Positions 24,283 to 29,242 of a DNA stretch of 33,594 nt are shown here, one piece after another. How positions within the stretch are numbered: position 1 is the stretch's first letter; each line of letters opens with the position of its first letter. The notes under the pieces were generated by a model. The model saw only the letters and a program-made list of their open reading frames with translations, made no database searches and had not been told where the DNA came from. The stretch comes from a virus (lineage: Duplodnaviria > Heunggongvirae > Uroviricota > Caudoviricetes). The DNA is taken from positions 1-33,594 of the IMG/VR virus record IMGVR_UViG_2684622582_000002. One strand, written 5' to 3'. The position numbers and the translations under genes are program-made.

Positions 24283-25716
24283 TTGGCTACATGGCAACAG
24301 GCTGGTAATTCAGGCGCTCTTCTTGCCGGGTTAGGCGGCATGAACTCCAACGCTCCAAGAGCAAGTGATGCAGACGCCACGCTTGCATACATTCGACAGA
24401 ATAACGAGATGGAGCGTTCAGGACGTAATAACGTTGGCTTGCAGGCTTTGCAGGGCATTTCATCTGTCATGGATATGTATAAGCAGATGGATCAGCAGAA
24501 GCGACAGCAAGAGTTTCAGCAGGCTTATGCTGATGCATATACATCTGGTGACCGCGATGCAATGCGAAAACTGGCATCACAGTATCCTGAGCAGTTTGAC
24601 GCCGTAAGAAACGGCATGAAATTTGTCGATGAAGACCAGCGTTCCACTGTCGGTACACTGGCAGCAAGTGCCAGACTCGCAGCTTCATCTCCAGAAGCCA
24701 TGATGTCATGGTTGCAGAACAACTCATCTGAGCTTACTCGTGCCGGAGTAGACCCTCTGGATGTGGCGAAAATGTATCAGCAAAATCCACAAGGTTTCAC
24801 AGAGTTTGTTGATCACCTTGGGATGGCTGCGCTTGGTCCGATTGATTACTTCAATGTTCAGGACAAGATGGCTGGTCGGGATATTGAGCGTGGCGAGTTG
24901 GCAGAGACGATTCGCAGCAATAAAGCTGGGGAAGGTTTACAGGCGCAAAGCATTGCTGTTAGCCGTGAAAACTCCCTGCGCACTGCTGGAGGTGCTGTTC
25001 CTGCATCTGTTAAAGAATATCAATATTTCAACAGCCTGTCTCCAGAGCAACAAAAGACATATCTTCGTGTTCGAGGCCGTCCTGATGCTGGCGGGGAGAA
25101 TGTTGTGCAACTGGCAGATGGTAGAACGGTAACGGTAGGCGGGAAACTTCACGGCGCTGGGGCTAATGCGTTCTACGAAGGCATCGATAACGAGGGGAAT
25201 ATGGTTCGCGTTCCTGCCAGTTCAATCGCAGCGCCTGCAACATCGTCTGCATCAGCACAAAACTATGCCATGAAGAAGGATATCGACGCGATCGCAAATG
25301 CAGACGCTTCTGCTCTCGATTTCATGACAGGAATGACCGGCGGCGCAGGTAACCCGGCAATTGGTGCTGATGTTCGCAGCCGATTAACAGGAAAAGAGCA
25401 GCGCCAGTTATATAACTCAGCACAACGTATTCAGGGCAGAATGCAGAATCAGGGCGTGGCGGCAGCAAGAGACATGGGTGCCAGTGGTATTAACACCGTT
25501 GCAGAAGCGAAGATGTATTTTCAGGGGATGCCGCAGGTTGACTATTCAAGCCCGGAGGCTATGCAGCAGTCGATTCGTCAGATTCAGGAATACACCAACA
25601 ATTACAACCAACAATATAACGTTAATGTTGGTAAATCTCAGCGGCAGCAATCTCAACCTGCACAGGTATCACAGCCAGCAGCCAGCAGTAACTTTTCTTC
25701 ACTATGGGGTGATTAA
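24283..25716 (+). CDS. Ejection protein gp20-like, 477 aa
   Basis: Position and size match P22 gp20 (about 471 aa). Confidence 0.7.
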
Positions 25717-27698
25717 TGGCTAAAGCATGGAAAGATGTTATCGCCTCTCCACAGTATCAGGCGTTAGCACCAGAACAAAAAGCGCAGGCTCAGGAGCAAT
25801 ACTTCAATGAAGTCGTGGCCCCGCAAGCCGGAGAAAATGCAGAGCAGGCTAAGCAAGCTTTCTATGCAGCCTATCCATTGCCATCTGTGCAGCCAGTGGA
25901 GACACAGCAACAACCACAGCAAAGTGGATTTATGTCTGATCTTGGTGAAGCAGTGAAAGAGACAGGTCGCGGACTGGTGCAGGCTGGCGTGAACGTGGCA
26001 AACATACCTGCATCAGTTGCCGATGCTGTAACAAGCGCGGCGACTTGGGCTGGCGGTAAACTCGGTATTGGCGATGGTACATATCAACCAGCGCCAAGAG
26101 TAACAACGCAGGGATTAGAGCAGGACTTTGGCCTTCAGCAAGGCGCGCTGACTCCACAAACGACAGAGGGAAGGGTATTTGCTGAAGCATTGCCTTACCT
26201 CACTCCTGCTGGCGTTGAGAGAGCGGCAGCACAGGCACCAACACTTGCTGGTCGAATTGCTCAGGGGGCAACTCGCCTTCTCGCTGAAAACGCAGTTGGA
26301 TCACTTGCTGCAAATAGTGCGAAAGATGATGCGGAAGCACTCGCCACCGATTTAGGCGTTGGCGTTCTGGCTGGCGGCGCTATTAACGCTGCCGGACGTG
26401 GATTAGGTGCTGCTTATCGTGGCGTTCGTGGTGCTATTGCGCCAGAAGCGCAGCAAGCTATCAGATTTGCAGAGCGTGAAGGAGTGCCTCTGCACACCAC
26501 AGACCTGTTACAGCCTACTTCCCGCGTCGGGAAAATGGCGCAGACTACAGCAGAAAATATACCCCTGGCTGGCACAAGCGGAATGAGAGCAACGCAACAG
26601 GAAGCGAGAAGTCAGTTGGTGCAGAGATTTGCTGATAAATTCGGCGAGTATGATCCAGCGGTTGTTATTGACAGCCTTAAAGCGAAAACATCAGGAATTC
26701 GTCGTGCCGCCGGTAATCGACTGGAGCAGGTTCAGAATGCTATGGCTGGAGTAAACATTCAGCCTGCGCGAGCAATTCAGCAGATTGATACAGAAATATC
26801 TAACCTGCAGAAGCTTGGTAAGGTTGCTGATAACGAGACTATTTCAAAACTTCAGTCATATCGTGATGAGCTTGTTCGCAATGCTGGCCCTGATGGTCCT
26901 GTAAATCTGGATTTGAAGCAATTAAGCGACCTGCGCAGCCAGTTCAGAATGGACGTGAAGGGTGAACGACCAGTGTTACCAAACCGTTCCGATGCTGCCA
27001 TTCGGCGCGTTTACAAGGCGATGACAGACGATATCAATGGTGCCATTGGTCAGAATCTTGGCAACGATACTCTCCGTAAATATCAGCAGGCCAATGCCGT
27101 ATACGCTGACGAAGCGGCGAAACTAAAGAATACCAGGCTGAAGAATGTTCTCATGAAAGGCGACCTGACGCCGGAAGTTGTCAACAACATGCTATTCAGC
27201 AAGAACAAATCGGAAATTAAGACGCTGTATAACTCAGTTGGTCGTGTTGGCAGGGCGCAAATGCGCAATGGCATCATTGGAAAGGCGATGGAGAAATCTG
27301 GCGGATCCCCTGACCAGTTCCTTCGGCAGCTTAACATCCTACAAAACCAGACTGGCATCACATTTAAGGGGCAGGACGCTGCTTATCTGAAAGGATTAAA
27401 AAACTACCTGCAATCCACGCAGCAGGCTGCAAAAGCGGCAGTAACAACACCCACAGGACAGCAAACTATCCCGTTCATAATTGGGTATGGGACGGCAATG
27501 AACCCGGCGACAACTGGCGCAGCAGTAAGCTACGGACTTCTTACTCGCGCCTATGAGAGCGAGCCATTCAGAAATGCAATGCTCCGAATGGCAAACACCC
27601 CACGCGGTTCAACAGTGTTTGAGAAAGCCATGCAGCAGGCACAAAAGGCAATTAACGCTATGATGCAGGGGGCTAAGTCTGATGCGTTGTCAGAATAG
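25716..27698 (+). CDS. Ejection protein gp16-like, 660 aa
   Basis: Position and size; start overlaps previous stop. Confidence 0.7.
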   Translation: MAKAWKDVIASPQYQALAPEQKAQAQEQYFNEVVAPQAGENAEQAKQAFYAAYPLPSVQPVETQQQPQQSGFMSDLGEAVKETGRGLVQAGVNVANIPASVADAVTSAATWAGGKLGIGDGTYQPAPRVTTQGLEQDFGLQQGALTPQTTEGRVFAEALPYLTPAGVERAAAQAPTLAGRIAQGATRLLAENAVGSLAANSAKDDAEALATDLGVGVLAGGAINAAGRGLGAAYRGVRGAIAPEAQQAIRFAEREGVPLHTTDLLQPTSRVGKMAQTTAENIPLAGTSGMRATQQEARSQLVQRFADKFGEYDPAVVIDSLKAKTSGIRRAAGNRLEQVQNAMAGVNIQPARAIQQIDTEISNLQKLGKVADNETISKLQSYRDELVRNAGPDGPVNLDLKQLSDLRSQFRMDVKGERPVLPNRSDAAIRRVYKAMTDDINGAIGQNLGNDTLRKYQQANAVYADEAAKLKNTRLKNVLMKGDLTPEVVNNMLFSKNKSEIKTLYNSVGRVGRAQMRNGIIGKAMEKSGGSPDQFLRQLNILQNQTGITFKGQDAAYLKGLKNYLQSTQQAAKAAVTTPTGQQTIPFIIGYGTAMNPATTGAAVSYGLLTRAYESEPFRNAMLRMANTPRGSTVFEKAMQQAQKAINAMMQGAKSDALSE

Positions 27699-27788: not shown

Positions 27789-28274
27789 TTATCTGATGTT
27801 ACTGCTACTGTTGCATGTTACCGTGTTTCCAAATCCTGAATTGCAGTTTGTATATGTGTCAACGCGTGTTGGGTAAGGTTGAGTTATAACAGGCTGGCGC
27901 GCTTTTTGCTCGATCGCTTGCATTGTGTTTACAGCCTGATAATTCAATAAAGCCTGCTGGAATGCTTGGCTTTGCGCTATTTGTTTGGCTTGTTCTTGGC
28001 TTTGTAATTGAACATAAAGATTCTGAAGCTCAAGTCTTGCCTGTGCGTCACTTATCTTGCCTTCATCGACACCTTGCCCGAGCATCTTCGCAGCAAGGAC
28101 ATACAGCTTAGGTGTTGGTGCTGATGCCATGCGTGAGTCGTTCTTCACGCTAGCATCAAGGCAATTAGCCATATCGCTAAGCTTTGGATAGCGTTGTTCG
28201 CAATTTGCCTGATAGTCGCTAACCTTTGCACACCCTGCAAGCAGAAGCGGGATAATTAACAGTGATTTTTTCAT
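27789..28274 (-). CDS. Lipoprotein (cargo; possible superinfection-exclusion or surface function), 161 aa
   Basis: Signal peptide with lipobox MKKSLLIIPLLLAGC, GGAGAG RBS; Gln-rich helical middle, Cys-containing C-terminus; sits where P22 carries sieA. Start moved to the RBS-proximal ATG. Confidence 0.7.
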   Translation of the reverse strand: MKKSLLIIPLLLAGCAKVSDYQANCEQRYPKLSDMANCLDASVKNDSRMASAPTPKLYVLAAKMLGQGVDEGKISDAQARLELQNLYVQLQSQEQAKQIAQSQAFQQALLNYQAVNTMQAIEQKARQPVITQPYPTRVDTYTNCNSGFGNTVTCNSSSNIR

Positions 28275-28408
28275 ATGATTAACTCTCCTTATCTTTGCCA
28301 TCATGGCACTGTTGGGTGTAAATGAGTTATTAACTCAATCGACAATATCTTCACGAAAATACTTTTTATTATTAAGATCTTTCTGATTCTAACAAAACGG
28401 AAAGTAAT

Positions 28409-28828
28409 ATGAAGAGGATTATCGGCGTCGTTGCTGGCGCTATATTGTTATCTGGGTGCGCAACTATTGTTGGTGATGAAACGCAACTTGTGCAAGTGAA
28501 CAGCAATCCTTCTGGCGCGAGCTTTAAGGTAAAAGATGAATCTGGTGTGATTGTTGCGCAAGGTAAGACTCCACAAGGTGTAACACTCGCCAAGTCAGAT
28601 GGTAGCTATTTTGGCAAAAAGAGCTACCAGATCACTATGGAGAAGGATGGATACGAGCCAGTTACCCTGCCAATAAAAGCCAATGCTAATGGTTGGTATA
28701 TTGGTGGAAACCTTGTGTTTGGTGGGTTAATTGGTTGGCTTGCTGTAGATCCATTTAATGGTGGGATGTATACCTTGAAGCCTAAAGAGGCAAATGCATC
28801 CCTTATACCGTCCACAAAGCAAGACTAA
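28409..28828 (+). CDS. Lipoprotein with PEGA-like domain (139 aa)
   Basis: Lipobox AILLSGC; pattern NPSGASFKV-DESGVIVAQGKTPQGVTL...KDGYEP resembles PEGA domains; Gly-rich GGLIGWLAVDPFNGG segment; followed by a terminator. Confidence 0.65.
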   Translation: MKRIIGVVAGAILLSGCATIVGDETQLVQVNSNPSGASFKVKDESGVIVAQGKTPQGVTLAKSDGSYFGKKSYQITMEKDGYEPVTLPIKANANGWYIGGNLVFGGLIGWLAVDPFNGGMYTLKPKEANASLIPSTKQD

Positions 28829-28835
28829 TAAATGG

Positions 28836-28860
28836 AACCCACCATCAGGTGGGTTTTTTG
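28836..28860 (+). terminator. Intrinsic terminator after lipoprotein gene (overlaps mnt 3' end)
   Basis: Hairpin AACCCACC-ATCA-GGTGGGTT followed by TTTTTT. Confidence 0.55.
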
Positions 28861-29096
28861 TACAAATCCTTCAGCGTATCAAACACCATCTTCTTAACAA
28901 GTTCAGACTGCTCATCAGCGATGCGTTCCGCATCGTCTCGATAGCCTGAAATTTTGGATGGCTTTGATACAGCATCAGTCACTATCTGAACTAATTCTGA
29001 ATTAAGAGAGCGGCCATTGGATTTGGCTCGCTGTTTTAGTTTTTCCTTTAATTCGTAAGGTAGCCGCAGATTAAATTGCGGGTCATCTCTTCCCAT
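28845..29096 (-). CDS. mnt: Mnt repressor (ribbon-helix-helix), 83 aa
   Basis: MGRDDPQFNLRLPYELKEKLKQRAKSNGRSLNSELVQIVTDAVSKPS...DEQSELVKKMVFDTLKDLYKKPT closely matches remembered P22 Mnt in length and sequence. Confidence 0.85.
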   Translation of the reverse strand: MGRDDPQFNLRLPYELKEKLKQRAKSNGRSLNSELVQIVTDAVSKPSKISGYRDDAERIADEQSELVKKMVFDTLKDLYKKPT

Positions 29097-29159
29097 TCTT
29101 GATGCCTCGCTTTTGTGAGTGGATCGGCATCTTATTATCTGCTGGTTGCATCCTCAATA

Positions 29160-29174
29160 AGACCACAGTGGTCT
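29160..29174. promoter_or_regulatory. Candidate Mnt operator (palindrome) in Pmnt/Pant-equivalent region
   Basis: Perfect palindrome AGACCAC-A-GTGGTCT, resembling the remembered P22 Omnt core (GTCCACGGTGGAC), between mnt and the tailspike gene. Confidence 0.5.
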
Positions 29175-29242
29175 CTTTGTTTGATTAATAATGCATCACT
29201 GTGGCAATGCTGCGGCGATTCCTTGTATCTGGAGCAAATTAA

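Follow-up and report, generated by a model that had tools for sequence, protein, structure and literature searches.

A stand-alone mnt gene with a predicted Mnt operator in front of the endosialidase tailspike gene of a P22-like prophage

The window, that is, the whole analysed stretch of 33,594 nucleotides of viral DNA, carries an ejection-protein ORF (25716-27698), two moron ORFs, mnt, and a tailspike gene, in this order. The mnt site belongs to the late operon, where it follows the gene 16 homologue and precedes the tailspike; its features are listed in Table 1. The tailspike product matches Pfam families PF09008, PF12217, PF12219, PF12195, PF12218, and PF13884. The stem-loop of the probable terminator is common to mnt and to the convergent ORF 28409-28828 on the plus strand, and in the epsilon34 record its homologue carries the annotation of a rho-independent terminator.

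Table 1. Features of the mnt-tailspike region (positions in the window)
Feature	Position	Strand	Description
Probable bidirectional intrinsic terminator	28836..28855		G+C-rich stem-loop CCCACC-atca-GGTGGG with T-runs on both sides; terminator scan
mnt	28845..29096	minus	83 codons; ribbon-helix-helix repressor with C-terminal tetramerisation domain
Shine-Dalgarno sequence of mnt	29105..29108	minus	GAGG, 8 nt before ATG; direct sequence reading
Vestige of Pant	29124..29152	plus	TCGGCA-17-TGCATC (P22: TTGACA-17-TATATT)
Predicted Pmnt	29129..29157	minus	-35 TTGAGG (29157..29152), 17-nt spacer, -10 TAAGAT (29134..29129)
Predicted Mnt operator, AGACCAC class	29159..29175		17 bp, two-fold symmetric; AAGACCAC-A-GTGGTCTC
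Perfect 15-bp palindrome	29160..29174		AGACCACAGTGGTCT; sole copy in the window
Variable junction	29175..29194		about 20 bp; replaces arc, sar, ant, and the ant terminator of P22 (about 1.3 kb)
Conserved 48-bp leader	29195..29242	plus	RBS GGAG (29231-29234); local alignments to P22, CUS-3, and epsilon34
Tailspike	29243..32188	plus	P22 head-binding domain, K1-specific endosialidase, S74 chaperone domain

The gap between mnt and the tailspike (29097..29242) is 146 bp long. Neither the ORF list nor tblastn revealed an Arc- or Ant-like ORF there, in agreement with an earlier note on this DNA, which saw no room for these two genes, and arc, ant, and sar were not found between mnt and the tailspike. 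No RNA family of Rfam matched positions 28300-29500. The junction in the middle of the gap cannot be aligned among lineages. The leader behind it is the "boundary sequence" that P22-like phages have in common whether they carry immI or not; in the CUS-3 record it bears the label bsq1, and the match extends from about position 29196 in HK620 and CUS-3 and from about 29228 in Sf6. HK620 and Sf6 share the last 15-50 bp before the tailspike ATG with the window, but nothing in them matches the window mnt.

The Mnt protein has the same length as Mnt of P22. It had been described as a near-full-length Mnt of 83 aa, where the number of codons is correct, but the protein is full-length. Both domains are present, as the N-terminal ribbon-helix-helix DNA-binding domain was recognized at residues 3-50 (Pfam Arc PF03869, 2.8e-22) and the C-terminal coiled-coil tetramerisation domain at residues 53-80 (Pfam Repressor_Mnt PF11423, 2.2e-18). 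The protein also matched the solved DNA-binding domain 1MNT (2.8e-34) and the tetramerisation domain 1QEY (3.1e-12) in PDB. It is 100%, 92%, and 76% identical to Mnt of Gally, ST160, and P22, respectively. Arg2, His6, Asn8, and Arg10 are reportedly the beta-strand contact residues of P22 Mnt, according to Knight and Sauer. Arg2, Asn8, and Arg10 are the same in the window Mnt, and the N-terminus, GRDDPQFNLRLP, has Gln6 where P22 has His6.

The left 78 bp of the gap were aligned with the P22 control region in MAFFT, and seven lineages were included, namely five mnt-only lineages (Mnt 60-100% identical), P22, and one ant-bearing Gln6 module. The curated P22 record BK000583 gives Pmnt as TTGAGA-17-TATCAT, Pant as TTGACA-17-TATATT, and Omnt as CTCAATAGGTCCACGGTGGACCT; the window counterparts of the two promoters are those in Table 1, and that of Omnt is CTCAATAAGACCACAGTGGTCT. 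The palindrome aligned column for column with the curated Omnt, as CTCAATA-GGTCCAC-G-GTGGACCT in P22 and CTCAATA-AGACCAC-A-GTGGTCTC in the window, where CTCAATA precedes both operators. Invariant in all seven aligned lineages were TTG of the Pmnt -35, TAnnAT of its -10, and the operator half-sites. As in P22 immI, mnt, a homologue of Pmnt, and an operator in homologous columns are present, arranged as between divergent overlapping promoters. The window Pmnt is, by this alignment, a positional homologue of P22 Pmnt and would be an active promoter; it agrees with the consensus in 8 of 12 positions, below the threshold of the promoter scan, and no site with at least 9/12 was found on either strand between 28700 and 29400.

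Pant is degenerate. Its equivalent agrees with the consensus in 6 of 12 positions, its -10 hexamer is without the key A2 and T6, and a functional Pant toward arc and ant was thus not recognized. The Arc operator between the Pant hexamers is missing in the window, and the Oarc columns are unconserved. Consensus TTGACA of Pant was kept solely in ant-bearing modules, i.e., in P22 and in IMG/VR loci L087, L215-L224, L229, and L231, whereas all mnt-only lineages have TCGGCA or ATGGCA at this position, and TGCATC, TGTATC, or TGTAAC, lacking A2 and/or T6, at the -10 position. In comparison with P22 immI, the window shares a homologous two-domain Mnt, the site, and the columns of Pmnt and operator, but it is without arc, Oarc, sar, ant, and the ant terminator.

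The earlier note had reported a perfect 15-bp palindrome before the tailspike and called it Omnt-like. The palindrome is present, with 68 bases between it and the tailspike ATG at 29243, and both its place in the Omnt columns and its conservation in related sequences bear the second description out. Perfect palindromes with 7-bp arms and one central base are not rare per se, as four were observed in the window against about two expected; the weight of this one lies in its position and conservation and not in symmetry alone. The predicted operator AAGACCAC-N-GTGGTC is two bases from the -35 of Pmnt, as in other mnt-only ant morons, and the predicted Pmnt start lies about 45 bp downstream of its centre. 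Conservation was calculated from 39 distinct intergenic sequences out of 73 mnt-only loci. Conservation reaches at least 95% at positions -8 to -1 and +1 to +6, any base occurs at the centre (A8/G13/C7/T11), and to the right (3') of the operator conservation collapses. The outer right half-site is TCTC and slightly weaker in window-type E. coli copies, and TCTT in the Salmonella mnt-only phages. In one mnt-only lineage (L225-L228) the right half-site is lost or damaged, so that the operator is not indispensable everywhere. A second operator was not found in the window or in the whole genome of Gally, and Pmnt is therefore the demonstrable cis partner of this site. When contigs of representative genomes were scanned with a 19-mer operator pattern, there were only six chance matches in unrelated MAGs, and no match of the Mnt protein was found in the same contigs; the prophage is evidently absent from that collection.

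The near-invariant positions -1 and +1 around a variable centre fit a two-fold-symmetric protein site better than the loop of a hairpin. It can hardly be the case, then, that the palindrome is an RNA hairpin acting as a weak intrinsic terminator of rightward transcription, even if the terminator scan flagged a 6-bp stem followed by CTTTGTTTGA and the T-run after the palindrome is longer in some E. coli variants. The fold is marginal (-8.8 kcal/mol, z-score -1.8), the Salmonella lineages have no T-run, just the central base varies where a loop would include -1 and +1, and in complete modules this sequence separates Pant from the arc RBS, a place where termination would serve no purpose.

The mnt-only layout is an already known and widespread variant of the ant moron, identical to that of the published Gally, a prophage of adherent-invasive E. 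coli (AIEC) strain LF82. A stretch of 456 bp, from mnt across the gap into the start of the tailspike, is 100% identical in LF82, and this junction was found at a coverage of at least 80% in 106 of 5426 complete E. coli genomes. Gally Mnt is annotated as "Mnt repressor"; Gally differs from the window in the receptor domain of its 799-aa tailspike and in the absence of neuO. The order mnt-then-tailspike was also found in vB_EcoP-720R6, ST160, SE1, several ST-numbered Salmonella phages, and ST64T-like loci. All 64 IMG/VR loci with Mnt at least 91% identical to that of the window are without arc and ant, with gaps of either 146-147 bp or 135 bp. Another gap class in IMG/VR, of about 425 bp, has a duplicated tailspike start and an AT-rich insert. 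One IMG/VR locus carries an IS1 insertion.

Salmonella phages L, ST64T, and ST104 and phages SE1 and ST160 resemble the window in having mnt followed by the tailspike after a gap of 135-146 bp, and they share with it the operator AAGACCAC-N-GTGGTCT and the Pmnt geometry. Their Mnt proteins are 70-92% identical to that of the window, the junction differs, and they carry endorhamnosidase tailspikes in place of the endosialidase. The variable region was named "ant moron" in the description of the epsilon34 genome by Casjens and colleagues in 2008 (PMC2629481), where ST64T, ST104, and Para1 were said to carry only mnt and one gene of unknown function. A mnt-only ant moron was also described for phage L in 2021, and whether it has a new function or is a remnant was posed there as a question (PMC8022706). 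Since mnt-only morons were published before, the question raised by the earlier note is an existing one and not new. What stands of that note is an immI-derived mnt with an Omnt-like operator, without arc and ant, upstream of the tailspike; neither of the two explanations that it proposed, control of the tailspike by Mnt or a remnant of an immI deletion, agrees well with the data.

The mnt gene is under purifying selection, as judged from codon comparisons. Between the window and ST160, both mnt-only, dN/dS is 0.10; in the three deeper mnt-only comparisons where it could be estimated, it is about 0.08 in two and 0.24 in one, with dS saturated. When loci were recovered by the operator pattern, a search blind to the integrity of mnt, the gene was full-length in every tailspike-adjacent locus where the mnt region was present. 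The operator and the Pmnt core persist across lineages with saturated synonymous sites. These results argue against decay of the cassette, and that it is a non-functional, slowly decaying remnant of an immI deletion is very unlikely. Such a remnant would agree with the loss of arc, sar, ant, and a usable Pant, with the damaged half-site in L225-L228, with the Gally mnt deletion, for which no phenotype was reported (PMC9928086), and with the phage L paper, which lists it as one possibility (PMC8022706). It would be at odds with dN/dS of about 0.1 in a gene that stays full-length beside its operator and the tailspike, with an operator and Pmnt core that outlast the saturation of synonymous sites, and with the spread of the layout over 106 complete E. 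coli genomes and several Salmonella phages.

The other explanation in the earlier note was that Mnt had been repurposed to control the tailspike directly. A conserved rightward promoter between the operator and the tailspike was not found in the aligned lineages: the best rightward candidates vary from lineage to lineage, and the segment between operator and leader is variable in both sequence and length. With the Pant equivalent degenerate as well, the sequence offers no support for a Mnt-controlled tailspike promoter and argues against it.

When Mnt function is lost in a P22 prophage, the prophage is induced by Ant. The Gally delta-mnt::KanR lysogen was viable and survived normally in macrophages (PMC9928086), which is consistent with the absence of an ant gene under the control of Mnt; one of the primers used for this deletion matches window positions 29097-29136. 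RNA-seq of Gally in LB placed mRNA of mnt and of the tailspike at the prophage background (PMC9928086). In macrophages, mnt was up 40-fold and the tailspike about 20-fold together with three neighbouring genes, while the upstream late genes went down (PMC9928086). The co-induction of mnt and tailspike speaks against efficient repression of the tailspike by Mnt, and the opposite course of the upstream late genes means that some tailspike transcription is independent of the bulk late operon.

Control in cis of this kind, in which Mnt gates the tailspike either by repressing a weak rightward promoter overlapping the operator or by a roadblock, together with head-on transcription from Pmnt, to RNA polymerase entering the gene from the left, is rather improbable. 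The operator would be well placed for it, since there is no other way into the tailspike than across this site, 68 nt from the ATG; its conservation also exceeds what autoregulation by itself would seem to require. Moreover, the ant moron of P22, possibly through Mnt and Arc, was suggested to affect the frequency with which late transcription gets to the tailspike (PMC2629481), and the tailspike of Gally was induced in macrophages despite the falling upstream late genes. On the other hand, the Pant equivalent stands at 6/12 with A2 and T6 missing from its -10, the lineages have no conserved rightward -35/-10 pair in common, the operator-leader stretch varies, and the leader is found also in HK620 and Sf6, which match none of the window mnt. 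The joint rise of mnt and tailspike with their neighbours in Gally is also unlike repression.

Several classes of Mnt and operator were recognized among the compared loci. His6 Mnt is associated with GGTCCAC-N-GTGGACC in P22, epsilon34, and E. coli loci L236 and L237, all with arc-ant, and Gln6 Mnt with AAGACCAC-N-GTGGTCT in the mnt-only lineages and in complete mnt-arc-ant modules of IMG/VR. Gln6, Lys8 Mnt of L113 and L116 is accompanied by three tandem GACCAC-N-GTGGTC sites around TTGACA, Gln6, Val9 Mnt of Emek and E. coli L238 by AGTAGTAC-G-GTACTA, and Arg8 Mnt of L233 and L234 by GTCACAC-N-GTGTGAC. In loci with Asn8 Mnt, the fifth base from the operator centre is T with His6 and A with Gln6. 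This pairing of residue 6 with the fifth base is suggestive of a specificity variant and does not amount to a full recognition code. It recalls the altered-specificity His6 mutants of Mnt that Youderian and Sauer are said to have obtained. A rule by which residue 6 alone sets specificity was rejected, because Emek-type proteins combine Gln6 with an operator of a different centre, and the Arg8 proteins are different again.

The window operator differs from P22 Omnt by symmetric changes at two positions per half-site, AGACCAC with Gln6 against GGTCCAC with His6. Mnt of the window is therefore predicted not to recognise the P22 operator or a P22-type Pant, as far as can be read from these sequences, and this would agree with classical genetics, in which phage L was without a working immI (PMC8022706).

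The AGACCAC operator also occurs with Mnt of the N-terminal type ARDDPQFNLRM at the Pant start in complete mnt-arc-ant modules of IMG/VR. These modules (the ant-bearing IMG/VR loci named above) are like the window in the operator and the Mnt contact residues, with a right half-site that is degenerate in some operator copies. Unlike the window, they keep consensus Pant TTGACA, arc, and, except L219, ant; their Mnt C-terminal domains are different, and no P22-type tailspike is adjacent. Mnt of this class can thus have an antirepressor under its control, and an orphan Mnt could in this way guard its prophage against incoming phages of the same class.

As an alternative, then, the orphan Mnt could be a trans-acting guard that shuts off Pant-arc-ant of incoming or co-resident AGACCAC phages, and we regard this as unlikely, though slightly less so than gating of the tailspike. 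In this scheme, the resident C2-type repressor would be protected from a foreign antirepressor, and the operator in cis would set the Mnt level only. It is known that Mnt of a P22 prophage acts in trans on superinfecting genomes, which would count for such a role. The same may be said of the near-identical operator at the Pant start in complete modules (CAATAAGACCAC-S-GTGGTCT in most of them), of their matching contact residues, of the ant-bearing L221, recovered from a metagenome that also yielded many window-type prophages, and of the purifying selection on mnt, which needs some output. However, no cognate ant-bearing module was found in the 5426 complete E. coli genomes, either by megablast or by distant blastn, and the E. 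coli arc-ant modules recovered there have P22-type GGTCCAC or Emek-type AGTAGTAC operators. Erwinia phage Midgardsormr38, the named phage closest to the cognate arc-ant modules and the one named relative checked, was rejected as a candidate target, because its operator is different and unrelated. CUS-3, a K1-specific P22-like prophage, shares with the window the endosialidase tailspike, neuO, and the 48-bp leader, but its ant moron consists of two tandem mnt-like genes, a small ribbon-helix-helix gene, and ant; with these different regulators and no AGACCAC operator, it was rejected as a trans target as well.

Taken together, we slightly favour the reading that the site is an autoregulated stand-alone cassette of mnt, Pmnt, and operator of the AGACCAC/Gln6 class, with the tailspike served by late read-through; binding of Mnt to DNA, activity of Pmnt, autoregulation, and read-through are all inferred here. 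This mnt-only form of the P22-family ant moron (immunity I region) would be a self-contained unit of a full-length gene for tetrameric Mnt, a leftward Pmnt, and a cognate 17-bp operator beside the -35 of Pmnt. What Mnt usually acts on, Pant together with arc, sar RNA, and the antirepressor gene ant, is gone, and the Pant hexamers have degenerated. Transcription of the tailspike most likely comes from late read-through, antiterminated by Q, that crosses the terminator, antisense mnt, and the operator, and not from a Mnt-controlled promoter. In cis, Mnt most likely adjusts its own production from a site centred at about -45 of Pmnt. Selection would keep the cassette in place. Against this reading stand the modest consensus match of Pmnt, the loss of a half-site in L225-L228, and the background level of mnt mRNA in Gally in LB.

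In vitro work on P22 by Vershon et al. in 1987 is said to have found that Mnt stimulates Pmnt indirectly only, by shutting off the competing Pant. If Mnt acts on Pmnt only in this way, a dead Pant leaves no obvious autoregulatory reason for the conservation of the operator. The strength of this conservation is not fully accounted for by autoregulation and would then hint at another role in cis. Somewhat more weight than to the guard alone may be given to the broader notion of a selected module with a job of its own, either an anti-antirepressor guard or a gate that keeps non-late transcription off the tailspike and the conversion genes downstream of it in the lysogen, although it too is not probable.

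For the prophage itself the consequence would be small, as there is no antirepressor-based second immunity and mnt is dispensable for the viability of the Gally lysogen. The P22 immI circuit is a textbook example of regulation, and Mnt serves as a classic model of DNA recognition by a beta-sheet. Many phages keep Mnt and its operator under selection without ant, and keeping ant off is thus not the whole story of this repressor. If Mnt does serve as a guard, the classes of Mnt and operator (GGTCCAC, AGACCAC, AGTAGTAC, and others) would define immI immunity groups of P22-like phages. Apart from that, the value of the locus lies in the evidence of selection on the cassette and in the natural classes of operator specificity, where the pairs Gln6/AGACCAC and His6/GGTCCAC and two further classes are ready-made variants for the recognition rules of ribbon-helix-helix proteins.

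The tailspike gene of the window is preceded by a 48-bp leader that carries the RBS. It is conserved in the P22-like phages P22, CUS-3, and epsilon34; in CUS-3, it is annotated as "boundary sequence" bsq1. The first ~25 nt of the leader are present twice in P22, on either side of a stem-loop. The 3' part of the leader was also found in HK620 and Sf6, neither of which matches any of the window mnt. Coordinates of the leader and of the other features are listed in the table.

Features of the window and of the CUS-3 locus
Feature	Locus	Position	Strand	Remarks
Moron ORF	window	27789-28304	minus	lipoprotein-type signal peptide; PHROG family of unknown function
Moron ORF	window	28409-28828	plus	lipoprotein-type signal peptide; PHROG family of unknown function
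Leader, 48 bp	window	29195-29242		upstream of tailspike gene
neuO	window	32342-33048		K1-capsule O-acetyltransferase gene, downstream of tailspike
CUS-3 ant moron	L003	485-1530		

Several variants of the mnt-tailspike junction were recognized among the compared loci. The IMG/VR loci L023, L034, L051-L055, L060, L064, and L069 have all retained mnt, operator, and leader. Behind the leader, the tailspike start is truncated (MTDIINR*), and the real tailspike gene lies beyond ~280 bp of AT-rich DNA. The truncated start and the AT-rich stretch look like the scar of a tailspike module exchange. In another IMG/VR locus, L031, the tailspike gene is interrupted by an IS1 insertion. Loci L225-L228 and L230 represent a mnt-only lineage adjoining the tailspike, which combines an intact mnt with a degenerate right half-site of the operator (GTAGCA or GTGGAA); the degenerate half-site may reflect operator decay or altered binding.

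The ant moron of CUS-3 encodes two mnt-like genes in tandem, one of the P22 type with His6 and the other divergent. A small Arc-like ribbon-helix-helix ORF was identified upstream of ant, in a region labelled "boundary sequence bsq2" in the annotation, and an arc equivalent may therefore not be truly missing from CUS-3.

The signal peptide motifs of the two moron ORFs are LLAGC (minus-strand ORF) and LLSGC (plus-strand ORF), and their products are candidates for superinfection-exclusion or envelope factors. Orthologues of both in Gally, a prophage of E. coli LF82, are expressed in the lysogen at 3-5 times the prophage background and are induced in macrophages (PMC9928086).

The neuO region of the window is 99.5% identical to that of CUS-3 and has eight heptanucleotide repeats (32345-32402, directly after the ATG) where CUS-3 has 19. 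Repeat numbers divisible by three place neuO in the ON state. As the ATG and the enzyme body are in different frames in the window, its neuO appears to be phase-OFF.

PHROG 795, like many NC_ RefSeq phage records, names Mnt homologues "partition protein ATPase". For a ribbon-helix-helix repressor of 83 aa, this label looks incorrect, and it appears to have spread by propagation.

Operators differ among the loci encoding Mnt-like proteins. Three tandem GACCAC-N-GTGGTC sites surround a TTGACA promoter in L113 and L116, GTCACAC-N-GTGTGAC is paired with Arg8 Mnt-like proteins in L233 and L234, and AGTAGTAC-G-GTACTA is paired with the Emek-type Gln6/Val9 Mnt in L208 (Emek) and L238. Together, these loci represent a ready-made natural series for the recognition rules of ribbon-helix-helix proteins.
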